Positions 2,927-33,424 of a stretch of DNA of 64,000 nucleotides are shown in pieces; position 1 is the first letter of the stretch, and each line of letters starts with the position of its first letter. The position numbers were made by a program, and so were the translations under genes. Source of the stretch: Acidobacteriota bacterium (GTDB lineage: Bacteria > Acidobacteriota > UBA890 > WLXD01); NCBI GenBank assembly GCA_965248845.1, contig CBDFKO010000002.1, positions 2,450,369-2,514,368 of the forward strand. The letters run 5' to 3'. The notes beneath the pieces are model-generated. The model was not told the origin of the DNA. It ran no database searches and saw nothing but the letters and a program-made list of their open reading frames with translations.

Positions 2927-4127
2927 ACCCCAAGCTCGTCACCGCGCTCAAGATCGTGGTACCCGTCGCCATCCTCGCCGCCGGCGGCATCGGCGCCGCC
3001 CAGCTGGCCACAATCCGGCCCGACGTGGAGACACGCCCGGCCGAGGTACTCGCGCCCCAGATCCGGGTTCTGCGGGTCGAGCCGCAGGACATCCGCCTGA
3101 GCGTACGGAGCCAGGGCACGGTGAGCCCGCGAAGCGAGAGCCGTGTCGTGCCGGAGATCTCCGGTCGGGTCGTTTGGGTGTCACCCGATTTCATCTCGGG
3201 CGGCTTCTTCGAGGACGGACAGCCGCTGCTGCGCATCGAGAGCTACGACTACGAGCAGGCGGTCGTCCGCGCCCAGGCCCAGGTCGCAGCGACCAAGCTC
3301 CGGCTGGCGCTCGAAGAGGCGGAGGCCGAGCTCGCTGCCGAGGAGTGGGCCGAGCTCGGCGAAGGCGAGGCGCCGCCGCTGACCCTTCGGGTTCCGCAAC
3401 TTGCCAACGCCAGGGCGGCGGTAGCGGCGGCCGAGGCCAACTTGCAGCAGGCCGACCACAATCTGCGGCGCACCGAGATCCGAGCTCCGTACGCCGGCCG
3501 GGTCCGCGACAAGAGCGTCGATATCGGTCAGTTCGTCAGCCCGGGTGCCTCGCTCGGCGTCCTGTATGCCATCGACTACGCCGAGATCCGCCTGCCCCTG
3601 CCCGACGGCGACCTGGCCTACGTCGATCTACCCCTCGTTTACCGGGGCGACCGCGCCCGGCGCGGGCCGCGGGTGACGTTGAGCGCAGAGTTCGCCCGCA
3701 GGACCTGGACGTGGAGCGGCCGCGTGGTCCGCACCGAGGGCGAGATCGACCGAGCCAGCCGCATGGTGCACGCGGTCGCCCAGGTGGCCGACCCCTACGG
3801 CCGCGGCGCCGATCCCGATCGCCCTCCGCTTGCCGCCGGCATGTACGTGCGCGCCGAGATCGCGGGCATCACCATGCACGATGTCGTCGTGCTGCCGCGC
3901 GCGGCGGTTCGAGCCGACGGGCGCATTCTGGTGGTCGATGCCGACAATCGGCTTCGCTTCCGCGAGATCGAGGTAGCGCGCGCCGACCGCGAGCAGGTAA
4001 TCGTCTCGGCAGGCCTGGGATCCGGTGATCGTGTCTGCCTGACGAACCTGGACGTGGTGACCGACGGCATGCCGGTGCGAGTCGCCGAGCCGACCACCGG
4101 CAGCGACACGATGACCGAGGCAATCCA

Positions 4128-4131
<4 letters not shown>
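2923..4131 (+). CDS. RND efflux periplasmic adaptor (MFP)
   Basis: N-terminal TM; VPEISGRV lipoyl half-motif, EIRAPYAGRV, GMYVRAEI, LPRAAV. Confidence 0.95.
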
Positions 4132-7367
<3,236 letters not shown>

Positions 7368-9242: not shown

Positions 9243-10738
9243 TGGAGTCCTGGCGACCCGAGATCATCATGACCTGCCTGGCGCTCTACCTAGCGCTGTG
9301 CCTCGGCATCGGGCTCTGGGCCCTGCGGCGAACCCGGTCGCCACGCGACTTCTTCGTCGCTGGCCGCCAGCTCGGCTTCATGGTCACGGGCCTGGCGATG
9401 TTCTCGAGCACGCTGAGCGGCTTCGGCTTCGTCGGCGGCCCCGGCCTCATCTACACCATGGGCATGAGCTCGGTGTGGATCATCATCACCGCCACCTCGG
9501 GCAACGCGATCTCGACCTTTCTGCTCACCAAGCGCCTGCGCCTGATCGCCGAGCTGCGCGACACGGTGTCGCTACCCGACGCGGTCGCGGCGCGCTACGG
9601 CAGCGAGACCACCCGCCTGCTCACGGCGGTCGCCATCCTGCTCGGAGTGCTCGGCTACCTGGGAACCCAGATCCTGGCCATGGCGACCGTCCTGCAGACG
9701 TTGCTGCTGAGCACCGACACCTTTGCGGGCATCGGCCTCGTGGCCTGCGTCGCCTTCTCTTCGGCGGTTCTGATCTTCTACTGCGTCACCGGCGGCGTGA
9801 TCGCCGGGGTCTACACCGACTTGGTCCAAGGCGGCGTCATGCTCGTCGCATCCGTGCTCGTGTTCGTCGCCGCGGCCGCGGCGGTCGACGGTGGGCTCGG
9901 CGGGGCGGTTGACACGCTGGTAATCGACGACCCGGAATCAGCCAGCGCTTGGGGCACCATGGGCATCGTCGGCTGCCTGTCCTGGTACTTCCTGTTCACC
10001 GTCGGCGGCGTCGGTCAGCCACACATCATCACCAAGTCGATGATGTACCGCCGCGTCGCGGACGCCCCCAAGATCCTGCCCGTCATCCTCACCGCCTATA
10101 CCTTCTCGGCCCTGCTCTGGATCGGCATCGGCCTGGCTATGCGCGCGCTCGTCCTGCAGGGCGCCCACCCACCGCTGAGCGCCCCCGACCAGGCGGCGGC
10201 CCAGTTCCTGCAGACCTACGCCAACCCGCTGCTGGCCGGTGTCGTGTTCGCCGGCCTGTTCGCCGCCATCATGTCGACCGCCGACGCCTTTCTGAATATC
10301 GGCGCCGCCGCACTGGTCCACGACATCCCGATCGGTCTACGGGGTCGTGCGGCGGGCCGGGAGCTGTTCTGGGCCCGCAACGCGACAGCGATGCTCGGCG
10401 TCGCCGCCGCGCTCTTCGCGCTCTACTCCCACTACGTCAACGACCGGCTGGTCGCGCTCCTGGGTGCGTTTGGCTGGGGCACGTTCGCCGCCGCCCTCGT
10501 CCCGGTCGTCGGCATCGGTTTCAACTGGAAACGCGCCACGCCCCTGGCCGCCAACACGGCCATCGTGGTCAGCCTGATCCTCAACTTCGGCATCGAGGTT
10601 TTCGACGTTGCCCTGCCCCACGGGCTGCATGGCGGGACCGTGGCGTTGATCGCCTCGCTCCTCTTGTTCTTTGGGATCTCGTATGCGTCGGAGCCGGTGG
10701 GGATCGCGCCGGATATTGATGCGGTGATGGATCTTTAG
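9242..10738 (+). CDS. Sodium:solute symporter (PutP/PanF-like)
   Basis: DFFVAGRQLG, SGFGFVGGPG, YTDLVQG, GQPHI, AAIMSTAD motifs; many TM helices. Confidence 0.93.
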   Translation: MESWRPEIIMTCLALYLALCLGIGLWALRRTRSPRDFFVAGRQLGFMVTGLAMFSSTLSGFGFVGGPGLIYTMGMSSVWIIITATSGNAISTFLLTKRLRLIAELRDTVSLPDAVAARYGSETTRLLTAVAILLGVLGYLGTQILAMATVLQTLLLSTDTFAGIGLVACVAFSSAVLIFYCVTGGVIAGVYTDLVQGGVMLVASVLVFVAAAAAVDGGLGGAVDTLVIDDPESASAWGTMGIVGCLSWYFLFTVGGVGQPHIITKSMMYRRVADAPKILPVILTAYTFSALLWIGIGLAMRALVLQGAHPPLSAPDQAAAQFLQTYANPLLAGVVFAGLFAAIMSTADAFLNIGAAALVHDIPIGLRGRAAGRELFWARNATAMLGVAAALFALYSHYVNDRLVALLGAFGWGTFAAALVPVVGIGFNWKRATPLAANTAIVVSLILNFGIEVFDVALPHGLHGGTVALIASLLLFFGISYASEPVGIAPDIDAVMDL

Positions 10739-10750
10739 CGCGGGCGAAGC

Positions 10751-10838
10751 TTCGGCGGTAAGGCGGCGTGGGGCGTCGAGCTCCGCCCAAGTTGCGCCGA
10801 ACCACGATACCCCACTGCGCCGCCGCCCCACCTCCGAA
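10751..10838. repeat. Palindromic intergenic repeat, short copy
   Basis: TTCGG...CCGAA ends; core GTCGAGCTCCGCCC-N3-TTGCGCCGAACCACG-N2-ACCCCAC shared with 20927-20967. Confidence 0.75.
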
Positions 10839-10840
10839 CG

Positions 10841-10878
10841 AAAACAGCCCCCGGCAGCCTCAGCCGCCGGGGGCGGTT
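10841..10878 (-). terminator. Rho-independent terminator
   Basis: Stem GCCCCCGGC/GCCGGGGGC followed on the minus strand by a T-run; downstream of the 10896 gene. Confidence 0.7.
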
Positions 10879-10895
10879 CCCTACGATCCGTCAGC

Positions 10896-11888
10896 TCAGG
10901 AGATCTCGAACGCAACCTCCGTCTTTGCCTCCTGATCGGTCACCTTATCCTTCACCGTGATCTCGAACTTGTACATCTTGCCGACCTCCAACCCCTGGAC
11001 CTGCGACAGCGGGATCGGCTGGCCGACCGTCGGGCGGCTCATGGTCTGTGGTGGCATGCGCACGATGCTGGCGCCGGTCTCGTCGAGAATCCGGTAGTTG
11101 AGCTCGATGTTGAAGGCGTGCGTGGCCGGGTCGGGCTGGGCTCCGGTGACGATGTACATCAGCTCGATCTGCGGCGTGTCCTTGGGGAACACGTGGGTCA
11201 CGTTGTCGGGCACCAGGATGGTGAGCACCATGATCCCGTCGTAGACCGTGTTCGCCAGGAAGGAGCCGGGGGCGATGCTCGGTGGCCCCACGACCATGAG
11301 CACGCTGCTCGTCCCCAAGCGTGTCAGCAGGTTGGGAACCTCGAAGCTCTCCAGTCGGGTCGCCGCCTTGCCGCTGACCGAATCGCGGACGCCCCAGACC
11401 AGCTCGTAGGTACCGGGCTGGAACGTGTCGCCGAAGCTGTAGGTCCCCGACGTCGTTTCGTCACCACCGGTCTTGGCGAGCTGGAACCCCGCGCCGATAC
11501 GGGTGATCTCGGCGCCATTCTGCAGCACGGCACCGAATAGCTCCATGTTGGCGACCTCGGTCGGCATGGCGCCCGCGGCCTCGGCCGCGGCGTCCGCAAA
11601 CGGGTCGGCGCCGAACATCACGCCTTCCTTGCTGGTGCGGAAACCAATCATGGCCAGCGTTCCGCCTTGCAGCGACGGGAAGAAATAGGTGCGCGCCGTC
11701 AGGTCGAGGTCTTCGGCCATAGTGCCGCCGAGGGCCGCCTCGAGCACCGCGCTAGCCTCGGGCGACAGAACCACGCCCGGGGCCATCGGGGCTGCGGGGG
11801 CCAGCGAGATCTCCTGCGCCGCGGCGGGTAGGGCGGCGACGACGACGAGGGCGCATAGGGCGCCCGAACGGACGGTTGATCGAAGCAT
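10896..11888 (-). CDS. Exported hypothetical protein with tandem Ig-like domains resembling the GWxTD/VWA C-terminal region
   Basis: Signal peptide (LPAAA-QE); PGTYELVWGVRDSVSGK and GKMYKFEITVKDKVTDQ motifs; AAGGAG RBS. Confidence 0.75.
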   Translation of the reverse strand: MLRSTVRSGALCALVVVAALPAAAQEISLAPAAPMAPGVVLSPEASAVLEAALGGTMAEDLDLTARTYFFPSLQGGTLAMIGFRTSKEGVMFGADPFADAAAEAAGAMPTEVANMELFGAVLQNGAEITRIGAGFQLAKTGGDETTSGTYSFGDTFQPGTYELVWGVRDSVSGKAATRLESFEVPNLLTRLGTSSVLMVVGPPSIAPGSFLANTVYDGIMVLTILVPDNVTHVFPKDTPQIELMYIVTGAQPDPATHAFNIELNYRILDETGASIVRMPPQTMSRPTVGQPIPLSQVQGLEVGKMYKFEITVKDKVTDQEAKTEVAFEIS

Positions 11889-11923
11889 CGGGGACTCCTT
11901 GTGAGGCTGGGCGACCCGTAGAG

Positions 11924-14101
11924 CTACTGCTGCGGCTCGCCTACCGGGTCCGAGATCTGCTCCAAGAGTCTGCGGATCTCCGGTTGATCGATGTCGAGCT
12001 CGAGGGAACGTTGCCAAAGCTCACGCGCCTTGCCGGATTTCCCGTCGGCGAAGTAGGCAGAGGCCAGGGCGTTGAGCACGGGCGGCTCGTCGGCACCATT
12101 GACCATCCGCGAGCGCTCATAATAGCGGATCGCGTCGTAGTGCTCTCCCGCCTCGGAATGGGCGCCCGCCAGCGCCAACATGGCCTCGACGTTTCGTGGG
12201 TCCTCCACCACCTCGGGTGTGAGCAGACCGATCAGATCCTGCCAGCGGCCCGCGTCGCGCAAAAGCAGCATTTGCAGCCGTACGATGTCGCCGTTGTCAG
12301 GCTCGCGATCCAGGGCCTCGCCCAGGTAACCGATGGCCCGTTCGTACTCGCCGAGCACCCGATACTGGCGGGCACGCTCGAGCGCGACGGTAACGTCGGT
12401 CGGCGGCGGCGCGTGCTGCGAGTTGACGAACGGAAGCGCTTGGTCCTCCTTCGGCACCACGAGCTGAATCTCACGCCGACGTGCGGCCTGCCCGTCGCCG
12501 TCGAGGCTCACCTCGACCATGTAGCGGCCGGCGCCCAGACCGCGGGTGTCGATCTGCCACACATGCGGCAACACGCCGTAGACGTCGGCGTCCTCGGGCG
12601 AAAGCGTCTGGCTCCCCTCACGAACGGTCGCGCCCGAAGGATCACGAACGACGAAACGGCCTGTCAGCGGAACCGCGAAGCCCTCGGGCAGGAGCACCTG
12701 CTGGAAGACGCGGAGCGGTGGCCCGGCGAATGCCTGGTCGACAATCGGCACCATCAGCACGTTGGCGTATTGGAACGCGTAGCGCGTCGCGTACGGATCC
12801 CAGTCGGGGACATCACGCGTGTCGGCGACGACCACAGGGCCGATCAGGCGCGGGCGCGACGGATGAATCGACGGCACGTCGAGGTCGATCACCTGCTGGC
12901 CGAAGGAGCGGGCCACCTCGTTCTCGATCATCACGGTGAGCAACTGCCTACCCGGCACCGTCGGGAACATATCGAGATAGACCAACTGCTGCCGGCTGAA
13001 GCGGCGCGCCTGTTCCTCGTCGAGCTCGCCCGACAGCGACGCGTCGAAGTTCAGCAGCACCTTGCTGTCGGGAAGCGTGACGGCACCCGAAGCACCGAAC
13101 GAGAAATAGTAGTGGTCCTCGTACTCGTCGATGTTGAGGTGCTCCCCGGACGCACTCGTGGCGATGTGCAGGAAGGGCTCGCCGTCGGTATCGATGAGGG
13201 CCGTAGCGTACGCACTCATGCGGAGCGTCTCGAAGCGCACGTCGGACTCGGTCACACCCGTGAGCACCCGGTAGGCCCAGGTCTTGTCGGGCATGATGCG
13301 CTCGGGTACCGCGGCCACGTCGCCGATCAGCATCTCGGAGCGCAGCGGCGTGATGCCGTACTCCAGTCCGGCCTCCGACGGGAAGAGGCTGAACGCGGCG
13401 CTCGCGAGGTCGTAGTCGATCTCGCGCAACAGCGAGTACAGCGCCGTGCTGTCGCCGTAGCCGGTCGGTGCGTAGGTGTCGAACCGGTAGGAGTCTTGCT
13501 GCGCTCGTTGCTCGACCTCGCGGATACCGGCCCCATTGAGCAACTTCTCGGGGCCGTCCGCCAGGGGGCTGTAGAGCCGGAAGTCCCCGGAGCCGTACCT
13601 TTGGTAAAAGACCATGTAGAAGAAGGGAGGAAGGCCGAGCTCGGTCTCGCCCGCATACATCCAGATCTCGGCCGGATACGTCACCATCTCCGACTGGTAG
13701 CGATTGCGGCTGATCGGCTCGCCGAGCAGGATCCAGATGCGACCCCGGTCGGTCTGCCAGCCGTCGAGCGATGTGCCGCGTCCGAAGAACTTGTTGACGT
13801 AGGCAAGCCGCTCGTAGTGCAGCTCGTAGTACTCGTTGCGTGGTGTGCCCGGAGTCGGGTCGCGGTTCTTCCAGAACTGCTCGATAAAGATATCGTACTT
13901 GGCATCGATGTCGAGCCGCAAGAAGACGTCGTACTCCTCCTCGGTGATGAGGTGCCCGACGCCCGCCGTGACCCACTCGCGGTACCGTTCCGGGATCTCG
14001 TCCAGGTCCCTGGCCTCGTAGATCGACGTATCTCGTTGCTGGCCCGCAACGGGAGCAGCCAGGATCAGCGCCAGGGCGCAAATGAGAAAGCGGTGTCTCA
14101 A
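11924..14101 (-). CDS. GWxTD domain protein with C-terminal TPRs
   Basis: Signal peptide; FIEQFWKNRDPTPGTPRNEY..RLAYVN..GWQTDRGRIWILLGEP signature; TPRs at the C-terminus. TTG start assumed. Confidence 0.92.
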   Translation of the reverse strand: MRHRFLICALALILAAPVAGQQRDTSIYEARDLDEIPERYREWVTAGVGHLITEEEYDVFLRLDIDAKYDIFIEQFWKNRDPTPGTPRNEYYELHYERLAYVNKFFGRGTSLDGWQTDRGRIWILLGEPISRNRYQSEMVTYPAEIWMYAGETELGLPPFFYMVFYQRYGSGDFRLYSPLADGPEKLLNGAGIREVEQRAQQDSYRFDTYAPTGYGDSTALYSLLREIDYDLASAAFSLFPSEAGLEYGITPLRSEMLIGDVAAVPERIMPDKTWAYRVLTGVTESDVRFETLRMSAYATALIDTDGEPFLHIATSASGEHLNIDEYEDHYYFSFGASGAVTLPDSKVLLNFDASLSGELDEEQARRFSRQQLVYLDMFPTVPGRQLLTVMIENEVARSFGQQVIDLDVPSIHPSRPRLIGPVVVADTRDVPDWDPYATRYAFQYANVLMVPIVDQAFAGPPLRVFQQVLLPEGFAVPLTGRFVVRDPSGATVREGSQTLSPEDADVYGVLPHVWQIDTRGLGAGRYMVEVSLDGDGQAARRREIQLVVPKEDQALPFVNSQHAPPPTDVTVALERARQYRVLGEYERAIGYLGEALDREPDNGDIVRLQMLLLRDAGRWQDLIGLLTPEVVEDPRNVEAMLALAGAHSEAGEHYDAIRYYERSRMVNGADEPPVLNALASAYFADGKSGKARELWQRSLELDIDQPEIRRLLEQISDPVGEPQQ

Positions 14102-14193: not shown

Positions 14194-15987
14194 TTGAGAT
14201 TATACGCTGGCTGGCCCCCGAAACGCTCGTCTGTGCGCCCGCTCACGAGAGGGCTGGCTTGCGCCCTGATGCAAGGTCTCGCGCTCTGTGCTGGGACTGC
14301 CGGCGCGGGTCAGAGTGCTGATGACGCCACGTCGATCCGGTTCGAAGACGTGCGCGAGGCGATGGGCGTCGACTGGGCCCACTTCGCCGGCCGCAGCGCC
14401 GCCAAGGAGATGCCGGAAACCATGGGCGGCGGCATCGCCTGGCTCGACTATGACAACGACGGTCGCTACGACCTGTATTTCGTCGACAGCGGCACCCTGG
14501 CCGGTACCACCCCGCTGACCGAGGCGCCCGCCCGGGCCGGAGAGAACCGGCTGTTCCGCAACGCGCCGTCCGGGCGCTTCGAAGATGCGTCCCAGGCCGG
14601 TGCCGGTGACCCCGGCTACGGGATGGGCGTAGCGGTGGGCGACTACGACTCCGACGGCTGGAGCGATCTGTTCGTGACCAACTACGGTGCCAACGCCCTG
14701 TACCGCAACAACGGCGACGGGACCTTCGGCGACGTGACCGCCGAGACGGGGCTGGCCGGCGATTCCTGGAGCACGAGCGCGGCCTGGGGCGACCTCGACG
14801 CCGACGGGTTTGCCGAGCTGTACGTGGCCAACTACGTGAGCTACGAGGTGCCGAGCGTCAACAAGTGCACCGACGTAAACGACCGGTTGATCTACTGCAC
14901 GCCGGATCTGTTCGACGGGGTTGTCGACGAGCTGTACCAGAACCTCGGGGGTCGCGCCTTCGAGAACGTCACCGAGGCGGCCGGCACAGACAACGCCGCC
15001 GACGGCAAGGGCCTCGGTGTGGTGATCGTAGATATCGACGCCGACGCCCGGCCCGACATCTACGTCGCCAACGACGCTACCCGCAACTTCTTTTACGTGA
15101 ACCGCGGGGAGCTGCGCTTCGAGGACCAGGGCGTTATCTCGGGGACCGCCGTGAGCGCCGAAGGCTATCCTCAGTCGGGAATGGGCGTCGACATCGCCGA
15201 CATCGACGGCGATGGGAGCGTCGAGATCGGAGTGACCAACTTCGAGCGCCAGGCGGTGAACCTCTACATGGCCATGGTTCCGGGCCTGTTCCAGGATCAG
15301 ACCTTCGCCGTCGGCCTGGGCGAGCCCACGGTGGGGACGCTGGGCTTCGGCCTGGCCTTTGTCGACGCCGACGGGGATGGTGACCTGGACGTGGTGATCG
15401 CCAACGGCCACCTGGACTACGACGAGACCTCGCCCCAGGCGAACCAGGTGTTCCGCAACCTGGCTGCCGAGCGGCGCGCGGCAGGCGGACTCGATGGCAC
15501 CTCCGGCCTGCTTCGCGAGCTACCCGCCGGCGCCGGTGACCCGATGCAAGCTCGTCGGGTCTCGCGCGGGCTGGCCGCGGGTGATCTGGAGGGCGACGGC
15601 TGGCCCGACCTGGTGATTACCAACGTGCAGGAGCGGCCCACGATTCTGCGCAACACGGCGCCGCGCGCTGACTCTCGCCTGGTGCTGCGCCTACGGGGCC
15701 GCCAGGCCAATCGCGACGGCTACGGAGCCCACGTCGAGGTAACTCCGCTCGTGCACGACGGCACCACGGCAGTGCAATATCACGACGTGAAGAGCAGCAC
15801 CTCATACCTGTCGCAAGGCAGCAACGAGCTCTACCTCGGGATCGGGCAGGCCGATCGGGCCCGGGTCGTCGTGCGCTGGCCCGACGGTACGACCGAGGAT
15901 CTGGGCGAGCTCGAGGCCGGGTGGCTGATCCTCGTTCGCGAGGGCATGGGCGTTGTGGCCCGCCGGCCGCTGGAGGACTCGGCTTGA
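14194..15987 (+). CDS. CRTAC1 family (FG-GAP repeats + ASPIC/UnbV) protein
   Basis: MPETMGGGIAWLDYDNDGRYDLY, repeated DxDxDG loops, NRDGYGA..SYLSQ..VRWPDG. True start may be ~14233-14269. Confidence 0.92.
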   Translation: MRLYAGWPPKRSSVRPLTRGLACALMQGLALCAGTAGAGQSADDATSIRFEDVREAMGVDWAHFAGRSAAKEMPETMGGGIAWLDYDNDGRYDLYFVDSGTLAGTTPLTEAPARAGENRLFRNAPSGRFEDASQAGAGDPGYGMGVAVGDYDSDGWSDLFVTNYGANALYRNNGDGTFGDVTAETGLAGDSWSTSAAWGDLDADGFAELYVANYVSYEVPSVNKCTDVNDRLIYCTPDLFDGVVDELYQNLGGRAFENVTEAAGTDNAADGKGLGVVIVDIDADARPDIYVANDATRNFFYVNRGELRFEDQGVISGTAVSAEGYPQSGMGVDIADIDGDGSVEIGVTNFERQAVNLYMAMVPGLFQDQTFAVGLGEPTVGTLGFGLAFVDADGDGDLDVVIANGHLDYDETSPQANQVFRNLAAERRAAGGLDGTSGLLRELPAGAGDPMQARRVSRGLAAGDLEGDGWPDLVITNVQERPTILRNTAPRADSRLVLRLRGRQANRDGYGAHVEVTPLVHDGTTAVQYHDVKSSTSYLSQGSNELYLGIGQADRARVVVRWPDGTTEDLGELEAGWLILVREGMGVVARRPLEDSA

Positions 15988-17552
15988 GGGGATCGATACG
16001 GCTCCTGGTGCTGGCGTGGGCCTTGGTGCTCACCGCACCGGCCCATGCCCAACAGGACGACACAACCGAAACCGCCCAGGCGCGCTTCATCGCGGCGCTG
16101 CGGCTTGTCGAGCAGAGCCGCTTCGAGGAGGCCCTGACCGAGGCGACGGCGGGCGCCGAGCTGGCCCCGGACGACCCCGACGGTCTCAACCTTCTGGGGC
16201 GGATCTACGAGCAACTCGAGCGCGACCAGGAGGCCGAAGACGCCTACACCCGGGCCATGCGAGCCGACCCGCAGTGGAGCCCGCCTTTCATGAACCTGGG
16301 GACCTTGTATCTGAGGCAGTCGAAATTCGCCGCGGCCGTAGCGCCCCTGCAGCAGGCCACGACGCTGGACCCCGACAGCGCCCAGACGCACGCGTTGTAC
16401 GGCGTGGCGCTGCGCAACTCGAATCGAGTCGCCGATGCCGTCGGTGCATTCGAGCGCGCTTGGGAGCTGGCACCCGGCGACGGCCGGCTCGGTACCGATG
16501 TAGCGATCACTCGTCGCATGGCTGGCGACCTCGCCGGGGCGATCGGCGCCGCGGAGCAGGCGGTGGAACAGCTACCCGGCGATCCGCGGCCGCTCGGCCT
16601 GCTCGGTCAGCTACTTGTGGAGAGTACCCGGGCGGAGGATCTGATTCGTGCGCCGGCCGTCTACCGAAAGGCCATCGCGCTAGCCCCCGAGAACCCCGGC
16701 TTCTGGGCAGGGCTCGCCGCTGCCTACACCGAGCTGGCCCTGCGAGCCGATGCCGAACAGGCGTTAGGGCGGGCGATGGAGCTCGGCGCGAATACCCCCG
16801 ACCTGCGGTTTCGTCTGGGGCAGACGCTGGCGCGTCAGGCGAAGTGGGCCGCGGCGCTCGAGCAGTACGACTCGGTTCTCACACCCCTGCCCGACTCCCC
16901 CGTGGTGCAGCAGTATCGGGGCGAGGCCCTGTTCAATCTGAACCGTGCCGACGAGGCACTCGTCGCTTTCGAGCGCGCCATGGAACTGTCGCCCGGCGGG
17001 ATCGACCCGATCCTGTCGGCGGTGCAGATTCTCTTCGTCAAGGGGCAGCTCGACAGGGTCGAGGAGTACCTGGGTCGCGTGGCGATCACCGATGCGCGCG
17101 AACAGGCGCGGCTCGATCTCGAAACCTCACGGCTGCGGTCGCGCCAGGGGCGCGACCAGGAAGCACTGGAGGCGGTGGAGCGCCTGCTCGCGGTCGACCC
17201 CACGAACGTCGACGGCCTGTATCTGAAAGGACAGTCGCTGCTCAAGCTCGGCCGCATCGAGGAAGGCCGCGCGGCGCTCGCCGAGTACCAGACCCACTTC
17301 ACCGCCGAACGCGGCCAAGAGGTCGAGGCGTTGCGCTTCGGTCTCATCGGCCGCGCGCAGGTCTACACACTCCGCAGCCGCGTCTACATCGCCGAGGGGC
17401 GCTACGACGACGCGCTGGAGCAGCTCGTGGCGGCGACCGAGCTGGCCAGCGACAGCGCCGAGGTCTGGAGGCTCCTGGCCGAGCTGCACGACCTGCGCGG
17501 TGACTCGGAAGCGGCGGCCGCGGCCCGCGAGCGGGCTCGCGCGCTGCAGTAG
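15984..17552 (+). CDS. Exported TPR protein
   Basis: Signal peptide (PAHA-QQ), multiple TPR repeats; TTGA overlap with the CRTAC1 gene. Confidence 0.88.
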   Translation: MRGSIRLLVLAWALVLTAPAHAQQDDTTETAQARFIAALRLVEQSRFEEALTEATAGAELAPDDPDGLNLLGRIYEQLERDQEAEDAYTRAMRADPQWSPPFMNLGTLYLRQSKFAAAVAPLQQATTLDPDSAQTHALYGVALRNSNRVADAVGAFERAWELAPGDGRLGTDVAITRRMAGDLAGAIGAAEQAVEQLPGDPRPLGLLGQLLVESTRAEDLIRAPAVYRKAIALAPENPGFWAGLAAAYTELALRADAEQALGRAMELGANTPDLRFRLGQTLARQAKWAAALEQYDSVLTPLPDSPVVQQYRGEALFNLNRADEALVAFERAMELSPGGIDPILSAVQILFVKGQLDRVEEYLGRVAITDAREQARLDLETSRLRSRQGRDQEALEAVERLLAVDPTNVDGLYLKGQSLLKLGRIEEGRAALAEYQTHFTAERGQEVEALRFGLIGRAQVYTLRSRVYIAEGRYDDALEQLVAATELASDSAEVWRLLAELHDLRGDSEAAAAARERARALQ

Positions 17553-17567: not shown

Positions 17568-19676
17568 CTATTGCTGCAGTCCCTGGTCTTGCTTGATCCG
17601 CGCGACCATGTCGCGTAGCTGCGGGATCTGGAACTCGCCGTGCAACCGCTCCGGCACCGTGTCGACAAGCCGGTCGAGAACCTCGACCGCCTCGGCAAAC
17701 CGGTTCATGCGAACCAGCTCGATGCCGAGAGCGCGCATTGCCTCGAAGTTGGTCTCCGACAGCGACACCGATGTGCGCCAGTGCTCGAGCGCCTCCTCAG
17801 GGCGGCCCGACTGGAACGCGACGACCCCGAGCAAGTGGTGCGCCTCCGAGCTGGTCGGGTCGTACTGCAGTGCCCGCTGAAGCGATGACTCGGCATCCGC
17901 CACCAGGCCGCTGTCGAGCAACAAGACCCCCATGTTCAGGTGCAGGCTGGTATAGGTAGGATCGAGCTCGGCGGCACGATCGAAGGCAGCCCGGGCCTCC
18001 ACGGCGCGACCGGCCGCCCCGTGCACGGTACCCAGCAGGATCAAGGCATCGACGTTCGTGGGCTCCTCGGCGAGGGTATCCTCGAGCAGGGTGCGGGCCT
18101 CGTCGAAACGGCCTATCTCGTTGAGGTAGAAGGCGAGCTTCTGCCACAGCGCCGGCGTGCTCCAGCTCTGGGCCGCCGCAGCACTGAGGCGATCGACGGC
18201 CGCCGCGGTGTTGCCGAGGGCGTGCTGGAAGTTGGCGTGCAGCAGATAGGCGGCCCCGTAGTCGGGTCGCTCGGCGAGCACGCTCTCGGCCCGGGCCAGG
18301 GCCCCGGCGAAGTCGCCCTCCTCGGCCGCCAGAATCGCATCCTGCAGCTCGTTGTCGAAGCGAATGAGCGCCTTCGGGTCGTCCTCCGGGCCGTAGGTCT
18401 CCCGAGCTATGCCGCTGGAGGACCCACCGACGTAGCCGAGCGCTCGCAGGCGCCGCAACGTCTCAGGATCCTCGGCCAGAGGCCGTGCCGGGCCGCCGCC
18501 CGCCTGCAGATGTTTCTCCAGCGCGGCGCGCATCGCCGCCACCTGCGCGGCTTCGGCCTCGATCAGGTCGCTCGCCTCCACCGGGTCGGCGTCGACGTCG
18601 TAGAGCTCCGGCAGCGGTAGGTCGATGTACTTCCAGCGTCCCTGGAACAGACCGCGCAGCGGTGCCCAGCTGCGAGTGAGACTAGGGCCGAGCGACTCGA
18701 AGTAGACCACCCCGTCAGGGTCTGCCGCAGGCCCACCCTGCAGGCGACCGAGCAGCGCCGCACCCTCGGTGCCATCCCGCGCCAGCCCCAGCGCCTCGAG
18801 CACGGTAGGCAGAATATCGGCGTGGCTGACGCGGTCACCGACGACGCTACCGGCCGCAACTCCGGGGATACCGGCCATGATCAGCGGAACGCGCAGGGTC
18901 GAGGCGTAGGCAAAGATCCCGTGCGTGAGCTCGCCGTGATCGCCCAGCGCCTCGCCGTGATCCGATGTCAGCACCACGAGCGCACCGCGGTTTTCCGCGT
19001 CCTGCAGCAGTGGCGCCAACGCCGAATCGGTAAAGGCGACCTCGCCGGCATACGCATCCGCGGCGTAACGCTCGTCGAAGGGTGGCGGCGGCAGGTACGG
19101 CGCGTGGGGGTCGTAGACGTGTACCCAGGCGAACCAGGTACCCCGCTGGCGGCGGATCCAGCGCCGCGCGATCGACACCACAGCGTCGGCGGGCCGCTCG
19201 ACCATGCGGAACGAGCCGGAATCCAGGCTGCCGTAGAAATCGTCGTAGACGTCGAAACCCTGGGCCAACCCGAACTGGGAGTCGAGCGGGAACGCTCCGA
19301 CGAAGGCACCGGTCGCGTACCCAGCAGCACCGAGACGCTCCGCCCAGGTATCGATCGCGTCGGCCACCCGGAAGCCGGTGTTGTCGTGCACGCCGTGCCG
19401 GCTCGGATCCAGGCCGCTGAGAATCGACGTGTGCGACGGCAGGGTCATCACGGCGTGTGCCACCGCTTGATCGAAGCGCACGCCGCGGGCGGCCAGGGCA
19501 TCGATCGCCGGCGTCTGGGCCGCGCCGCCGGTAACCCCGAGCGCGTCGGCGCGCAGGGTATCGATCGTCACCAGGAGCACGGGTAGCGCCGGCTGCCGTC
19601 CCGGCGCCGCGAGTGCCGTGCTCAAAGCGAAGACGGCGACGCCCGGGCCGAGCGCCGCCGCCAGAAGTCTGTTCAC
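17568..19676 (-). CDS. Sulfatase-like (alkaline phosphatase superfamily) hydrolase/transferase with C-terminal TPRs
   Basis: LLVTIDTLRAD, TLPSHTSILSG, HVYDPHAPY, TSDHGE, LRALGYV, then TPRs. Confidence 0.92.
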   Translation of the reverse strand: MNRLLAAALGPGVAVFALSTALAAPGRQPALPVLLVTIDTLRADALGVTGGAAQTPAIDALAARGVRFDQAVAHAVMTLPSHTSILSGLDPSRHGVHDNTGFRVADAIDTWAERLGAAGYATGAFVGAFPLDSQFGLAQGFDVYDDFYGSLDSGSFRMVERPADAVVSIARRWIRRQRGTWFAWVHVYDPHAPYLPPPPFDERYAADAYAGEVAFTDSALAPLLQDAENRGALVVLTSDHGEALGDHGELTHGIFAYASTLRVPLIMAGIPGVAAGSVVGDRVSHADILPTVLEALGLARDGTEGAALLGRLQGGPAADPDGVVYFESLGPSLTRSWAPLRGLFQGRWKYIDLPLPELYDVDADPVEASDLIEAEAAQVAAMRAALEKHLQAGGGPARPLAEDPETLRRLRALGYVGGSSSGIARETYGPEDDPKALIRFDNELQDAILAAEEGDFAGALARAESVLAERPDYGAAYLLHANFQHALGNTAAAVDRLSAAAAQSWSTPALWQKLAFYLNEIGRFDEARTLLEDTLAEEPTNVDALILLGTVHGAAGRAVEARAAFDRAAELDPTYTSLHLNMGVLLLDSGLVADAESSLQRALQYDPTSSEAHHLLGVVAFQSGRPEEALEHWRTSVSLSETNFEAMRALGIELVRMNRFAEAVEVLDRLVDTVPERLHGEFQIPQLRDMVARIKQDQGLQQ

Positions 19677-19689
19677 AACGGGACCGCGA

Positions 19690-20688
19690 TCAACTGATCG
19701 AGTTGAGGAAGTCCTGGGCCAGCGCCGCGTTCTGTGAGCCCGGGTCGAGCTCGATTACCTTCTCGAGATGCGACTTGGCCTCGTCCATCTTGCCCTGCTG
19801 GATGAGGCACAGCCCCACCTGCATGTGGGCATCCGCGAAGCCCGGGTTTCGCTGAATCGCCAGCTCGTAGTATTTCTGGGCCTCAGCCGACTGACCCTGA
19901 TCGAACAAGAGCGAGCCGATGTTGTAGAAGACGATCGGGTCCCGGATGTCGGCCGGATCGACGCGCTCGAGATGCGCCATGGCACCGTCGAGATCCCGCT
20001 GCATCATCGCGACCTTGGCCAGGCCGAGGTGGGCCTCGGTGCTCTCGGGATCACCGCCCACCGCCGTCTCGAAATGCGACGTAGCCCTGTCGTGATCGCC
20101 GGCCGCGTAAGCAGCGTTGCCGGCGTTGATGCTCACCAGGTACAGCAGCTCGAGCGGGTCCTCCTTGGCACCTTCCTCGGCGATGATGGCTTCGAACGCG
20201 GCCAGCGCACCGGGGTAATCGCCAGCGTCGTAGAGTGCATTACCGGCCTTCATCTTCTCGCCGAGCTCGCCGCTGAACAGCGCCATCCCGCCGGGCACGG
20301 CGTCGCCCGCGGCGCTCGCATCCCCCGGCTGCAGGATCGTCTCGACCGGCTTGTTCTGGGTGTACTCCAATATGTTCGCGCTCTGAGCGCCGGGGAGGAA
20401 ACCCTCCGCTGAGATATCGATGTTCCAGGTACCTCGACCCATGGCGCCCTTGAGCCAGCGGCCGTCATTCTTCGTAATGAGTGTCCAGCTGTCGCCAGTC
20501 GCCACATAGGTCAGCACGACGGTGGCCCCGGGGATCGGATTGTGCTCGTGGTCGAACACCTGGCCCTGCAGACGACCGCGGCCCTGGGCGATGTTCTGCG
20601 CCGCGGCCGTAGTCGCGATAGCCAAGATGAGCGCGGCGACGGTAACGCCCAGAAGGGAGCTCCCGGCACGTTGCCTTGCCACTGCCAT
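19690..20688 (-). CDS. Exported carboxypeptidase-regulatory-like (Cna-B) domain + TPR protein
   Basis: Signal peptide; GRLQGQVFD..PIPGATV..GTWNIDISAEGF; TPRs. Confidence 0.88.
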   Translation of the reverse strand: MAVARQRAGSSLLGVTVAALILAIATTAAAQNIAQGRGRLQGQVFDHEHNPIPGATVVLTYVATGDSWTLITKNDGRWLKGAMGRGTWNIDISAEGFLPGAQSANILEYTQNKPVETILQPGDASAAGDAVPGGMALFSGELGEKMKAGNALYDAGDYPGALAAFEAIIAEEGAKEDPLELLYLVSINAGNAAYAAGDHDRATSHFETAVGGDPESTEAHLGLAKVAMMQRDLDGAMAHLERVDPADIRDPIVFYNIGSLLFDQGQSAEAQKYYELAIQRNPGFADAHMQVGLCLIQQGKMDEAKSHLEKVIELDPGSQNAALAQDFLNSIS

Positions 20689-23901: not shown

Positions 23902-24061
23902 TTTGCCCTCCTCGGCAGTGCAACCCGAGACCCTCAAATGGGGACGTCAACGCCGACCGGGTCCCTTGTGATCGGCGCGGATAATCCGGGGACACGCTGG
24001 TCCCACCCGGTATGAATGCAACTCGCATACCAGACCGAATCCAAGGAGTCGGATTTCTGTC

Positions 24062-29394: not shown

Positions 29395-31224
29395 ATGAAA
29401 CGACGCGGTCGAGAATCGAGGTCCGGGCCGTCACGGTACTCGTGTGCGGGAGCGCTAGTCGCGCTGGCGATGCTCCTGGCGACTTCGGGCATCGCAACCG
29501 CCCAGACGCGTGCCTTCGGCGAGACCATGAATCGCGGCTTCGCCGCCATCGAGGCCGAGGATGCGGCCGCTGCCGCCGCCGCCTTCCAAGCCGCTCTGCT
29601 GATCACGCCCGGTCATCCGGCGGCCCTCGCCTGGCTGGGCAACGCACGGCGGCTCGAGGGTGACCTCAGCACCGCCCTGCGGAGGCTCGACGAGGCCGTG
29701 ACCGCGGCACCCGACTATTACCCGGCACGGTTGTTCCGCGCCCAGGCCCGGGAGCAGGCCGGCCATGTCGGCGAGGCGATCGATGACCTGCGCGCCGCCG
29801 TACAGCTCGACTCCGCCGACCCCACTGCCCGCGCCAGCTTGGCACGTCTGCTCATGCGCACGGGTCGGCTCGAGGAGGCTGCGGCGCAGGCCGATGAGCT
29901 CATCCGGCTGGCGCCCGACGTCTTCGCCGCCCATTATCTGCTGGCTACCGTGCAGCAGCAGCGCCAGCGGCATTCGGCCGCACTGACCGCGTTCCTGGAG
30001 GCCGACGCACTGCAGCCCGGAGAGCGAACCGTGCTGTTCGGTATCGCCGATGCCCTGGCCGGGCTGGGCCGTGTCGAGGACGCGTTCGGCGCCCTGGCCC
30101 GGCTGGTTGAGACCCATCCCGACTACCCTTACGGCTGGCGCCGCTACGCCGAGCTGCTCGCCGCGAATCGCTTCGAGCTCGATGCACGCATTGCGGCAGC
30201 GGACTTCTATACCCGCGCTCTCGAGCTACAGCCGGGTGAGCTCGATGTCGTTCGTCCGCTCGCAGCCCTGTATCTGGAGCTGCGACTCTTTCAGCGGGTG
30301 CAACGGCTGGTCGAGGCGGCCCCGCGCGCCGAAAGCGATGCCGAGATCCAGTTCCTCTTGGGCAAGGCACAGGCGCAGATGCGTGCTCACGAGTCGGCGT
30401 TGAGAACCTACGACCGGGCCTTCGAGCTATCGCCGCGCGCCGACATCTTGGCCTACCGTGCTGCCTCCGAGCGCAACCTGGATCGACCCGACGCGGCGCT
30501 GGCGACGCTGCGCAGCGCGGTGGAGCTCGATCCCGGATACGGTCCGGCCTGGGTCGATGTGGGTGATCTGCTGCTGCACCAGGACCAACTCGCCGAGGCC
30601 ACCACCGCCCTGCAGAACGCGGTGGGCCTTCTCCCCGAACATGGCCAGGCCCACTACCTGCTCGGCCAGGCCCTGCGACGGTCCGGTGACCCCGCCGGGG
30701 CGGTTCGAGAGCTGGAGCGCGCCGCCGAGCTCGACGAGACAAACGCTAACGCCTTCTACAACCTGGGTCTGGCCTACCGCGAGAACGGCGATGCCGAGCG
30801 CAGCCGGGTCGCGCTGGAGCGCTTCCAGGAGCTCGAGCGCACGTCCGGACGGGGTGCCGAGCAGGAGCGCAGAACCCGCGCCCGTGGCCTGCTTCGAACC
30901 GGGCTGGTGCAGTACCGGCTGGGCGACAATGCCGACGCCGCCGGCACCTTGCGACAGGCCACCGAGCTCGCGCCCGATGCTGAGCCGGCCTGGTACTACC
31001 TCGGGCTGTCGCTCGCCAACGAGCGCGATATCGCCGGGGCCATCGAGGCACTCGAACGAGCGGTCAGCTTGGCACCCGACCGCCTCGGCAGCCACGACGC
31101 CCTCGCCACGCTGTACGAGCAGGTGGGACGCGCCGACGATGCTGCCGCTGCCCGCGCGCGTGCCGCACAGCTACGCCAGCAGGCCCAGCAGCCGGTTAGC
31201 GCTCGGTCACGGCCGCGCCGGTGA
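29395..31224 (+). CDS. Exported TPR protein
   Basis: Signal peptide (IATA-QT) followed by many TPR repeats. Confidence 0.88.
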   Translation: MKRRGRESRSGPSRYSCAGALVALAMLLATSGIATAQTRAFGETMNRGFAAIEAEDAAAAAAAFQAALLITPGHPAALAWLGNARRLEGDLSTALRRLDEAVTAAPDYYPARLFRAQAREQAGHVGEAIDDLRAAVQLDSADPTARASLARLLMRTGRLEEAAAQADELIRLAPDVFAAHYLLATVQQQRQRHSAALTAFLEADALQPGERTVLFGIADALAGLGRVEDAFGALARLVETHPDYPYGWRRYAELLAANRFELDARIAAADFYTRALELQPGELDVVRPLAALYLELRLFQRVQRLVEAAPRAESDAEIQFLLGKAQAQMRAHESALRTYDRAFELSPRADILAYRAASERNLDRPDAALATLRSAVELDPGYGPAWVDVGDLLLHQDQLAEATTALQNAVGLLPEHGQAHYLLGQALRRSGDPAGAVRELERAAELDETNANAFYNLGLAYRENGDAERSRVALERFQELERTSGRGAEQERRTRARGLLRTGLVQYRLGDNADAAGTLRQATELAPDAEPAWYYLGLSLANERDIAGAIEALERAVSLAPDRLGSHDALATLYEQVGRADDAAAARARAAQLRQQAQQPVSARSRPRR

Positions 31225-33424
31225 TCAGGAACGGCATGATTTGCTTCACCCGCTGACCGGCGATCTCGTCGGCCAAGTCGATCTCGAGCAGGTAGGCGCC
31301 CTCGCGCAGATCCTCAGGCAACTGCGCCTGCACCAACATGCTGGTGGCGTTGCTGTCGGCGTCGAAGTCGCGCGCCAGCAGCTCGATGCCGGCGACCTCG
31401 TGGATCTGCCCCAGCTCGTCGATGGCCCGCGCGTCGATCTTCGTGTGCACCTTGCCGGTGAACGGGTGGCGCGCCAGGTTGTGGGCCACGAGCATGAAGT
31501 AGCAGGAGCCACCCGGCTGGGTAAGCGTGTAGACCTGCGGCGTGACTTCCTGCTCGCCGATGACGAAGGGGTAGCCGATCGGCCCCCCGGCCCGGTGCTC
31601 GGGTGGCGCTGCCGCGTCGAAGCCCCGAATCAGCAGACCCGGATGGTCCCGATCGACCGGCACCGGCCCGCTGACCGTGACCGCCGTCGGGTTGCTCCAG
31701 CGCGGTACCTCGAGCGTCTCGGTGCGCGTGCTCAGCAGACCCACCTCCGCATCGCGAACCAGGACGCGGACCTCGTAGGTTCCCTCCGTGGCCCACAGCA
31801 GATCGTAGTAGCGGAAGGGCAATCCGGACAGCCGTCCGCCCATCCGTAGCATGTCCAGGCTGACACGACGGCTGAACAGGTCCCGCATCTGTCCCTTGTC
31901 GTCCATGATGTAGCCGAGGATGTCGAGCTCGGCGCGGTCGTCGGCGCGGGTCGCTGCGATCTGCTCGAGCTGCTGATAGGGAACCTCGACGACCACGGCG
32001 ACCCGGCTGACTCCTCGGTCACCGACGAAGGGCGTGACCCGCACGTCGAAGGTCAGGTTCTCCTCGTCGAGCCCCTTGGTGATGAACTCCGACAGCTGCA
32101 GCTGGCGCTGCGCGTCGTCCATGTCCGTGTAATCGGGGGGCGGCGCCAGGCGCTGCGGCGCCGCCACGATCCGCGCGCCCTGCCGCAGGACCTCGACGTC
32201 GATGTCGACCACAGGAGGATCGTCTTTCTCCTTGCGGTAGGCGATCACGTAGTACTGGCTCGTATTCTCGGCCAGGTCGACCAATGCGGGCAACAGCTCG
32301 TTCTGATTCCACGACATGGTGCCGTTGGTGCCGTTGGCCAGGTAGGAGAGGCCCTGCCTGCCCGAGGTGTGGGTCTTGAAGGTGTCGTCGAACGCCTGGG
32401 AGTCCAGGCCCGACACGTCGAATGCGTGAAGGACAGTGTCGGAGGCCAACAGGTTCTCGAGCGCATTGGAGAGGCTCTGGCGCAGGTCGGCGCTCCCGAA
32501 GCGCTCCTCCGAGTTGACCGCGAAGGCCAGACCATCCTCGATCAGCTGCGTATCCTCCGCCAGCTCGTCGAGGCTCTTGCCGGAGAGCACCTTGTCGTCG
32601 AAGCCGGCGGAAAAGAGCAGCACGTGCTTGCGCCCGCGCGTCGCCTTGAGCATGTCGCCGAGCGCTTCGAGCTGGTCGGCGTAGTTGACCACCTCGTCGC
32701 GGTAGCGGCGAAAGTCGGCGGCGTAGGTATCGGCGAGCTCGGCAAACAGCGTCGCCTCGATGAGGGTCTGGAGCTGGGCGCGCGTCGTCTGGACGTCCTG
32801 CGCGAAGGCCACGTTCGACGTCTCCATCTCGAGCATGTCGGACAGCGGTGCCACCGCGAAGCCGGCCGGATCGACGATGAAGCCCGACCGGTTCAGACCG
32901 AACCCCTGGAGAGCGCTGATCACCTGCGACCGGTCGCCGGTGAAGGGCGAAACCAGTTGCAACCCGCCGGCAGTGCTATAGGTGGCGACGCCGATCAGGT
33001 CGTTCGGGTGGGTGTGCCGCTGTACGAACTCCAGCGCCGACTCCTGGGCTCGGAGCAGACCGCGCTTGGTCGAGAAGCTGAAGTCGAAGAAAAGGAGGAA
33101 CTGGCGCCAGCCGGCGGCCGGGATGAAGTCGTCGATATCCGGATCCGGGTTGGCTCGCAGGTCGATCTCGTAGACCGTCGTGATGTCACGCACGCGCCCG
33201 TCGACACGCAGGATGAAGTCGTCCCCGGTCAGCCGCGGGATATGGAAGCCGCGCGAGTCGGCGATCGCCACCTGCATCTGCACGACCTCGACGGTGGTGC
33301 GGAACTGCGGTCGATCCTGTGCCGCCGCGGAGCCGCCGGCGGCCGTGGTCACGGCCACCAGGGCGATCGCGGCGGTCGCTCCGCGCGCACCTCGGCTGAT
33401 GATCCTGCGCTCTCGATCGTGCAC
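31196..33424 (-). CDS. Acidobacterial VWFA-related domain protein with C-terminal Ig-like domains
   Basis: QDRPQFRTTVEVVQMQV..GFHIPRLTGDDF; FFDFSFS (MIDAS DxSxS); GRKHVLLFSAGF; LANGTNG..YYVIAY. GTG start after GGAGG. Confidence 0.9.
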   Translation of the reverse strand: MHDRERRIISRGARGATAAIALVAVTTAAGGSAAAQDRPQFRTTVEVVQMQVAIADSRGFHIPRLTGDDFILRVDGRVRDITTVYEIDLRANPDPDIDDFIPAAGWRQFLLFFDFSFSTKRGLLRAQESALEFVQRHTHPNDLIGVATYSTAGGLQLVSPFTGDRSQVISALQGFGLNRSGFIVDPAGFAVAPLSDMLEMETSNVAFAQDVQTTRAQLQTLIEATLFAELADTYAADFRRYRDEVVNYADQLEALGDMLKATRGRKHVLLFSAGFDDKVLSGKSLDELAEDTQLIEDGLAFAVNSEERFGSADLRQSLSNALENLLASDTVLHAFDVSGLDSQAFDDTFKTHTSGRQGLSYLANGTNGTMSWNQNELLPALVDLAENTSQYYVIAYRKEKDDPPVVDIDVEVLRQGARIVAAPQRLAPPPDYTDMDDAQRQLQLSEFITKGLDEENLTFDVRVTPFVGDRGVSRVAVVVEVPYQQLEQIAATRADDRAELDILGYIMDDKGQMRDLFSRRVSLDMLRMGGRLSGLPFRYYDLLWATEGTYEVRVLVRDAEVGLLSTRTETLEVPRWSNPTAVTVSGPVPVDRDHPGLLIRGFDAAAPPEHRAGGPIGYPFVIGEQEVTPQVYTLTQPGGSCYFMLVAHNLARHPFTGKVHTKIDARAIDELGQIHEVAGIELLARDFDADSNATSMLVQAQLPEDLREGAYLLEIDLADEIAGQRVKQIMPFLITGAAVTER

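Follow-up and report, generated by a model that had tools for sequence, protein, structure and literature searches.

We analysed a stretch of 64,000 nucleotides from an Acidobacteriota bacterium (assembly GCA_965248845.1, contig CBDFKO010000002.1, positions 2,450,369 to 2,514,368 of the forward strand), here called the window, in which two adjacent genes on the minus strand occupy positions 10896-14101. The upstream gene encodes a protein with a GWxTD head, an internal tail module and a TPR domain (P0070, the GWxTD/TPR protein), and the downstream gene encodes the exported protein P0001, for which we use the term "headless". A third protein, P0024, is encoded further along the window and belongs to the acidobacterial VWA family. 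Sequence comparison shows a module of about 280 residues, homologous in the three window proteins and composed of a short helix, a first domain (D1), a linker containing VP and a second domain (D2). The coordinates of these genes, of their parts and of the neighbouring genes are compiled in Table 1.

Table 1 The headless gene P0001, the GWxTD/TPR gene, the VWA gene and their neighbours in the window (aa, amino acid residues; nt, nucleotides; ORF, open reading frame)
Feature	Position	Strand	Extent and content	Basis
P0001 gene, headless exported protein	10896..11888	-	330 aa + stop	ORF and translation
P0001 Sec-type signal peptide			about aa 1-25, N-terminal; remainder of the protein is the tail module only	
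P0001 D1 part	11331..11771	-	aa 40-186; short helix 43-53 and beta-sandwich D1; ends with motif 1 PGTYELVWGVRD and EVP linker	model secondary structure
P0001 D2 beta-sandwich	10899..11330	-	aa 187-330; motif 2 GKMYKFEITVKD at its end	
Terminator-like hairpin	10847..10874	-	12-bp stem with 11 G-C pairs, then T-rich run	consensus scan
Shine-Dalgarno AAGGAG	11895-11900	-	6 nt ahead of P0001 ATG	
Spacer	11889..11923	-	35 nt; GWxTD/TPR stop TAG 11924-11926 to P0001 ATG 11886-11888	sequence read directly
GWxTD/TPR gene (P0070)	11924..14101	-	725 aa; signal peptide, GWxTD head, internal tail module, C-terminal TPR	
GWxTD domain proper	13655..13966	-	P0070 aa 46-149	TIGR04514 match, residues 75-178 of 754-aa ORF
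Tail module of GWxTD/TPR protein	12419..13339	-	P0070 aa 255-561; beta-sandwiches 294-410 and 418-561; contains PGRQLLTVMIEN and AGRYMVEVSLDG	
TPR domain of GWxTD/TPR protein	11927..12409	-	P0070 aa 565-725	Pfam TPR; model repeats 570-716; Foldseek TPR matches
FG-GAP/UnbV_ASPIC gene	14194-15987	+		Pfam
TPR protein gene	15921-17552	+		Pfam
Sulfatase-like/TPR gene	17568-19676	-		Pfam
CarboxypepD_reg/TPR gene	19690-20688	-		Pfam
CarboxypepD_reg + outer-membrane barrel gene	21085-23937	-	Oar-type architecture	Pfam
Acidobacterial VWA gene (P0024)	31196..33424	-	742 aa; signal peptide, TIGR03436 VWA head, C-terminal tail module	
Tail module of VWA protein	31214..32176	-	P0024 aa 417-737; contains EGTYEVRVLVRD and EGAYLLEIDLAD	

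All three window proteins have signal-peptide-like N-termini. The GWxTD/TPR protein is recognised by TIGR04514 with 98.4 bits (cut-off 28), by PF20094 with 33.5 bits (cut-off 26.9) and by many TPR families, and the VWA protein by TIGR03436 (acidobact_VWFA) with 105.7 bits (cut-off 81.25) over residues 95-457 of a 798-residue ORF. The translation of the latter contains FFDFSFS, in which DFSFS corresponds to DxSxS, the motif of the metal-ion-dependent adhesion site at the start of the VWA fold. P0001 is without the GWxTD domain (TIGR04514 / PF20094); it has no NCBIfam match at E ≤ 1, its sole Pfam match to DUF928 is insignificant (E 0.14), and its kinship to the GWxTD family is through the tail only, whose homologue in canonical GWxTD proteins is their last 250-300 residues at the C-terminus. 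The models of the known families stop short of this region: those of the GWxTD family cover only the head, about 105-172 positions, and leave the tail unmodelled, and the TIGR03436 model ends before the tail, which is carried by the window VWA protein and by only some other members. No Pfam or NCBIfam model for the tail was found in scans of the window proteins and 59 longer relatives, four of which gave faint matches to Big_13 or Y_Y_Y (E 5.5e-5 to 9e-4, under cut-off), and Pfam models of fibronectin type III, Ig-like and PKD domains had no match in the three window proteins at E ≤ 1. A sequence search of the PDB gave no match, and full-text literature searches with the names and accessions of the GWxTD and acidobacterial VWA families found no paper in the library searched. 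Homologues were collected for P0001 (22 proteins of 303-340 residues with 48-60% identity, the hydrophobic N-terminus being kept in 21 of the 22 in the alignment) and for the VWA protein (45 of 593-771 residues); the names on the homologues point to Acidobacteriota.

An earlier note on this DNA had drawn attention to a short strand motif, which it reported twice in each of the three proteins. All six peptides quoted there are present in the ORF translations; the strict pattern G-x-Y-x-[LV]-x3-[VL]-x-D is satisfied by only three of them (GTYELVWGVRD, GTYEVRVLVRD and GAYLLEIDLAD), while the other three are looser. Six-frame translation of this genome gives 26,558 ORFs with a length of 100 residues or more (5.76 million residues); in these the strict motif occurs 19 times in 16 ORFs, and twice in just three: the window VWA protein, one GWxTD paralog and an unrelated PKD-repeat protein. 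The last of these, encoded at G000:C2:2728151-2729104 (-), carries the two copies in GSYTVVLTVRDGD, and the motif is thus unspecific to the module. Because the strict pattern recurs across the genome, including in this unrelated protein, the short motif is a generic Ig/PKD-type strand signature that proves nothing by itself. The case for a shared module rests on full-length profile matches and not on the motif. In the profile-profile alignments, which extend over about 250-290 columns, the six peptides and the VP linker that the earlier note had placed after the first repeat stand in register.

Pairwise BLASTP detects the relationship only between P0001 and the VWA protein (E 2e-4 over 44 residues, spanning motif 1 and the VP linker) and is not significant for the other two pairs of window proteins. 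For profile comparison we used alignments of 23 headless proteins (A1), of 29 of the 46 VWA-plus-tail proteins (A2) and of 20 GWxTD/TPR proteins (A3). With hhalign, A2 and A3 match with 95.7% probability (E 9.2e-9, 272 columns, VWA residues 416-718 against GWxTD/TPR residues 277-554), and A1 and A2 with 60% (E 8.4e-5, 254 columns). When only the modules are aligned, A1-A2 reaches 75% in local and 94% in global mode, and A2-A3 96.8% and 98.3%. A further profile, m4, was built as a bridge from the tails of 30 foreign canonical GWxTD proteins; it matches the headless module with 100% (E 3.8e-57, 280 columns), the VWA module with 99.3% (E 1.1e-20, 284 columns) and the GWxTD/TPR module with 98.1% (E 1.4e-13, 248 columns). 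The protein P0181 was also considered as a bridge and was dropped, its BLASTP match to P0070 having an E-value of just 0.002 over 76 residues. Run as a hidden Markov model (HMM) against the same 26,558 ORFs, m4 returns 10 at E < 1e-2, and each of these is P0001, a GWxTD protein or a VWA protein; the E-values are 9.6e-68 for P0001, 5.7e-17 for the VWA protein and 2.9e-5 for the GWxTD/TPR protein. The common tandem module proposed in the earlier note is borne out by these profile-profile matches, the kind of check it had named, and their similarity goes far past what chance would give.

The two domains keep their order across the families. D1 of P0001 aligns to residues 448-575 of the VWA protein and, through the bridge profile, to residues 290-412 of the GWxTD/TPR protein. 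D1 against D1 and D2 against D2 gave 81% each between the VWA and GWxTD/TPR families, and 48% and 39%, respectively, between the headless and VWA families. A duplication of one repeat as the origin of D1 and D2 was rejected, since their alignment is limited to a hairpin of about 28 residues. The unit inherited is the D1+D2 pair, preceded by the helix and by a turn with the pattern G-x-x-E-x-[DN]-[LV]-x-[FL], which is present in all three families. Convergence, in which a common Ig/PKD-like strand motif came to lie on unrelated beta-sandwiches, could draw on the PKD-repeat protein with its two strict motifs, on giant repeat proteins whose matches are confined to profile positions of about 260-330, and on the short hairpin to which the likeness of D1 and D2 is confined. 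It does not agree with in-register matches over the full length (248-284 columns, 98-100% probability), with the pairing of D1 with D1 and D2 with D2, or with the specificity of the tail HMM in the whole genome. Because of the m4 matches and this specificity, we regard convergence as practically excluded.

The tail is found on several kinds of head. When the A1 profile was compared with 1.84 billion protein representatives, 342 matches were obtained at E ≤ 1e-3, of which 75 had E ≤ 1e-10. From 150 listed matches, the 59 with a length of 400-1,222 residues and one or two matching stretches were surveyed for heads; shorter matches were left out, as were about 26 giant repeat proteins with 5-25 short stretches each at profile positions of about 220-330, mostly 250-330. 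A GWxTD head is present in 50 of the 59 (45 by Pfam and five more by TIGR04514), the A1 matches to such proteins reaching E 3.7e-60. Six have TIGR03436 heads, three of them full-length (P0180, E 7e-9; P0216, 4.5e-7; P0219, 5.4e-7) and three fragments. The remaining three comprise one Ser/Thr kinase with cadherin-like/Big_9 repeats, one protein with TPR only and one in which nothing was recognised. The heads vary, as the earlier note had supposed. In 57 of the 59 the tail match ends at most 25 residues from the C-terminus; the exception is the GWxTD/TPR type, where TPR follows the module. Stand-alone forms of 322-374 residues, with a match spanning nearly the whole profile, make up 20 of the 150 listed representatives. 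In the kinase, P0118 (1222 residues, metagenomic), the Ser/Thr kinase domain is followed by a long charged repeat, a membrane-spanning stretch and three cadherin-like/Big_9 repeats, with a P0001-type tail at 955-1220, so that the tail can form the outer end of a transmembrane sensor kinase. Because this tail lies beyond the membrane-spanning stretch and all three window proteins have signal-peptide-like N-termini, we infer that the module is extracytoplasmic.

The genome that contains the window has nine GWxTD loci, and tail profiles detect the module in five of the nine GWxTD ORFs, in one of them weakly. Of its 12 TIGR03436 loci above cut-off, the tail is present in three open frames; in a fourth tail-bearing gene the head is read in one frame and the tail in another, and a further, interrupted copy is represented by a tail ORF only. 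Two tail ORFs, C2:1864604-1865791 and C2:3522537-3523688, were considered as headless VWA genes and rejected, the heads being located in another frame or 2.5 kb upstream. At the locus G000:C2:1861000-1871000 (ORFs 2616-3743, 3605-4792, 4584-7076 and 6646-6891) a pair of VWA-plus-tail paralogs stands in tandem, with head, tail and extreme C-terminus split among different frames and one TGA inside a match; they are pseudogenes or reflect assembly indel errors. At G000:C2:3519000-3527000 (ORFs 662-1036 and 3538-4689) a VWA-plus-tail gene is seemingly interrupted, the tail ORF being preceded at a distance of about 2.5 kb by an N-terminal fragment. Two relatives' loci (L028, 325-1482; L030, 328-1485) encode GWxTD proteins of 386 residues directly downstream of a GWxTD-plus-tail gene; they gave no tail match with the profiles used, so that the tail is either missing from them or has diverged strongly.

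AF2 models were calculated for P0001, with A1 as the alignment, and for the GWxTD/TPR protein. The P0001 model (predicted local distance difference test, pLDDT, 86.3; predicted template modelling score, pTM, 0.81) comprises a disordered signal region, a helix at 43-53 and beta-sandwiches at about 60-185 and 190-330. It shows two beta-sandwiches and no catalytic fold, where the earlier note had reckoned with a distinct catalytic fold as a finding that would speak against its proposal. Together with the profile matches, the model identifies P0001 as essentially the module plus a signal peptide, in line with the claim that one protein is nothing but the module. In the GWxTD/TPR model (pLDDT 73.6) the head is partly uncertain and residues 137-291 are mostly below 50; the module at 294-561 has block-mean pLDDT values of mostly 75-94 and the same strand order as P0001. 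The predicted fold class of the tail is a beta-sandwich. Foldseek returned the same tandem sandwiches from the PDB for both models, namely RbmA, factor XIII and other transglutaminases, protein 4.2 and complement C3, with low TM-scores and a root-mean-square deviation (rmsd) of 11-18 Å.

The best Foldseek match of both models is RbmA (PDB 4be5, 4kkq; E 6.8e-8 for P0001), a biofilm scaffold of Vibrio cholerae with tandem fibronectin-III-like domains. The likeness consists of two tandem beta-sandwiches on an exported protein. With 10-11% identity, TM-scores of 0.25-0.36, an rmsd of 11-12 Å over the pair, another domain arrangement and no sequence relationship, the resemblance to RbmA appears to be one of fold class only. 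The C-terminal beta-barrel pair of transglutaminases (factor XIII, TG2/TG3, protein 4.2) recurs among the matches of the two models, spanning about 290-300 columns; its TM-scores are 0.11-0.26, and unlike transglutaminases the window proteins are without a catalytic core. A connection to transglutaminases was considered on account of a Transglut_core/TPR gene that follows a GWxTD paralog elsewhere in this genome (locus L002), but the equivalent genes of relatives are CarboxypepD_reg/TPR genes in eight of eight cases. Therefore, the matches to transglutaminase barrels were treated as generic. A complex prediction for residues 24-725 of the GWxTD/TPR protein and residues 36-330 of P0001, made without controls, gave a best score of 0.23 against a mark of 0.32 and speaks neither for nor against binding.

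The position of the headless gene is strongly conserved. In the 61 genomes searched, the window's own included, a match at E ≤ 1e-10 was found in 10 of 10 genomes of the window's family, 15 of 15 of a sister family and four of 35 genomes from the phylum's other families. The GWxTD/TPR gene lies directly upstream on the same strand in all nine headless loci for which upstream DNA is available (L006-L012, L015, L017), a tenth (L023) being cut by the contig end; the placement of the headless gene directly downstream of a GWxTD gene, seen in the window across a gap of 35 nt, thus holds in every locus where it can be checked. In the window, the terminator-like hairpin lies 22 nt past the P0001 stop and would close the operon of two genes. 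The sequencing runs listed as containing this stretch are four of DNA type from one study, with no RNA run among them. In seven loci of the sister family (L018-L022, L025, L029) the slot after the GWxTD/TPR gene is filled by a full GWxTD-plus-tail gene, and, where DNA downstream of the full gene is available, the next gene is a CarboxypepD_reg/TPR gene in eight of eight scanned. Fused forms also occur in metagenomic sequences. P0105 comprises a head (53-219), a module (275-581), TPR (586-739) and a P0001-type module (757-1023), and P0107 has, beyond these parts, a second head at 741-884. A functional tie of the headless gene to the GWxTD/TPR gene is supported by operon structure, by synteny and by the fusions.

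The observation of a stand-alone tail raises the question of whether P0001 acts alone, as an exported matrix or glycan binder and RbmA-like scaffold, its adjacency to the GWxTD/TPR gene being due to common descent and co-regulation only. RbmA as the top Foldseek match of its model would fit such a role, as would the frequency of stand-alone forms; the nearest ESM Atlas clusters, which carry no family, are proteins of 347-367 residues without a Pfam family, and we take these as a lead only. We consider this explanation rather unlikely, because adjacency in nine of nine loci together with two independent fusion architectures exceeds what is usual for co-regulation, and the structural matches, with TM-scores no higher than those given above for RbmA, are generic.

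The origin of the headless protein was examined with a quick maximum-likelihood tree of 87 tails, rooted on six VWA tails. The headless proteins and P0105 form one group of 33 rows (support in the Shimodaira-Hasegawa-like approximate likelihood ratio test, SH-aLRT, 94), which nests in a clade of 63 rows (96, starred) that otherwise consists of GWxTD-bearing tails. Since the tree places the headless group inside the GWxTD tails, P0001 is, on this tree, a protein of the GWxTD lineage that lost its head and kept the signal peptide and the tail. The earlier description of the three proteins as unrelated is contradicted by this placement. A headless ORF from another family (L031) is located elsewhere on the tree and may represent a second head loss. 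The genome also keeps a close paralog with a head at C2:3472883-3474808 (E 1.6e-47 with tail profile m1 and 2.1e-89 with m4). One could imagine that P0001, having the same module without a head, competes as a decoy with such head-bearing paralogs for a docking site and dampens their activity. Neither the fusion of a headless-type module to its partner in P0105 nor the replacement of a head-bearing gene in a conserved slot across a whole family is expected of a decoy, and there is no regulatory evidence, which makes this a very unlikely role.

All three window proteins belong to one conserved neighbourhood. In the window, the pair on the minus strand is followed by the FG-GAP/UnbV_ASPIC and TPR genes on the plus strand and then by the sulfatase-like/TPR gene, the CarboxypepD_reg/TPR gene and the barrel gene on the minus strand, and three relatives from within the family (L036, L037, L039) have the same order. 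A fourth (L038) keeps most of it, with an extra FG-GAP/UnbV gene and without a CarboxypepD_reg/TPR match before the contig end. The VWA gene is included in the neighbourhood because in L036 and L037 a DUF3179 gene lies past the barrel gene and a VWA-plus-tail gene directly upstream of DUF3179; in L039 a second barrel gene takes the place of DUF3179. In the window, a Mutator-type transposase gene, an FG-GAP gene and a TPR gene lie between DUF3179 and the VWA gene. The transposase gene (28044-29057, -) is of the Mutator family, and in the relatives G006 and G010 the VWA-plus-tail gene is directly upstream of DUF3179; its placement suggests a local insertion or rearrangement. The ORF at 24351-27506 (-) is 1051 residues long, of which only the last 300 are DUF3179 (about 530 residues in relatives). 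It is probably over-extended, because its upstream part overlaps an FG-GAP/UnbV-like ORF at 26061-27941 on the plus strand.

In a recurrent pairing, FG-GAP/UnbV_ASPIC genes adjoin the GWxTD/TPR gene in both GWxTD loci of this genome (window 14194-15987, +; L002 5737-9308) and in the loci of six relatives (L036-L039, L043, L044). The second GWxTD locus of this genome, L002 (G000:C2:3469000-3484000; ORFs 1298-2581, 2599-3738, 3881-5782, 9336-11804 and 11762-13141), has two FG-GAP/UnbV genes between a GWxTD/TPR paralog and a GWxTD protein with a P0001-like tail. The latter is followed by the transglutaminase-core/TPR gene and by a tail-less TIGR03436 VWA gene, and an ORF for a reverse transcriptase (RVT_1) lies just upstream.

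The barrel of the neighbourhood has an N-terminal CarboxypepD_reg domain, an architecture that is also described for the Oar-type TonB-dependent transporter of Myxococcus xanthus (PMC6434023). Oar is reportedly required for the secretion of the protein PopC (PMC6434023), and the part of that article consulted contains no link between Oar and GWxTD proteins. The window barrel has no match to Plug or TonB_dep_Rec at E ≤ 1e-5, and it is encoded outside the GWxTD operon. From this likeness one may ask if the tail is a sorting or anchoring handle that brings varied heads to the outer membrane, possibly via an Oar-type TonB-dependent barrel, with the headless protein as a cargo-less or plug-like form. 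The position of the tail at the C-terminus in nearly all longer proteins, the diversity of heads, the retention of the barrel and CarboxypepD_reg/TPR genes nearby in the family and the reported role of Oar for PopC would all suit a sorting signal. We nevertheless find this unlikely: the module is internal in the GWxTD/TPR protein, with 160 residues of TPR after it, it is with about 280 residues far larger than known sorting domains, and the barrel gene lies outside the operon, with no barrel found near the operon in three loci of the sister family.

As the probable explanation we favour a single inherited and extracytoplasmic tail, about 280 residues long and common to the three proteins, in the order helix, D1, VP linker and D2; the 330-residue protein would be a headless derivative of the GWxTD lineage and a partner of the GWxTD/TPR protein in an envelope assembly. 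The tail is the usual C-terminal half of GWxTD proteins and is carried in addition by a subfamily of the TIGR03436 VWA proteins; after head loss, the signal peptide and the tail would have remained in P0001. Its gene is presumably co-transcribed with the GWxTD/TPR gene, fills the slot that a full GWxTD-plus-tail protein occupies in sister genomes, and seems to be fused with its partner in some organisms. Both gene products would be exported and would act together as parts of one envelope assembly, whose genes lie in a conserved neighbourhood together with those of TPR proteins and of an outer-membrane barrel of Oar type. The beta-sandwich tail may serve as the structural or binding part, in contact with proteins or glycans, while the heads or TPR may confer specificity.

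Several observations weigh against this explanation. The direct hhalign comparison of the headless and GWxTD/TPR families (A1-A3) is not significant (E 0.029 for the full alignments, E 0.04 for the modules), and the link between them depends on the VWA or the canonical-tail bridge profile. The fold models cover P0001 and the GWxTD/TPR protein, and the VWA tail is known by sequence. The tree is the result of a quick search with an assumed root, and its key branch is unstarred. Both fusions are gene predictions from metagenomes and could be due to missed stops. The Oar-type barrel gene lies at a distance of 7-10 kb, with a divergent gene pair in between, and does not belong to the same operon; in the three sister-family loci mentioned above, nothing but the three-gene operon was found within 20 kb. 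Direct binding between P0001 and the GWxTD/TPR protein is hypothetical, and their partnership is proposed from operon structure, synteny and fusions. A still wider interpretation, in which the tail is the universal docking handle of a hitherto undescribed envelope machine of modular build in Acidobacteriota and allied phyla, is unlikely at present. Such a machine would have a scaffold built from TPR proteins and an Oar-type TonB-dependent barrel, to which GWxTD, VWA or the outer part of a sensor kinase would attach as interchangeable heads by means of the tandem sandwich, with the headless protein as a dedicated stand-alone subunit that pairs with the tail or the TPR of the GWxTD/TPR protein.

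In conclusion, our findings represent a domain-architecture result and a modest advance in annotation rather than a new mechanism or a new kind of system. About half of each tail-bearing GWxTD or VWA protein is one common tandem beta-sandwich module, which has so far been left unmodelled and could enter the family databases as a new domain. This module links two large families without a function, GWxTD and acidobacterial VWA, that have been annotated separately. The GWxTD/TPR protein and the tail-only protein may be regarded as a genomically defined partner pair, and the small headless protein of 330 residues, which is predicted to fold well, would be a handy entry point for structural and binding work on these families.

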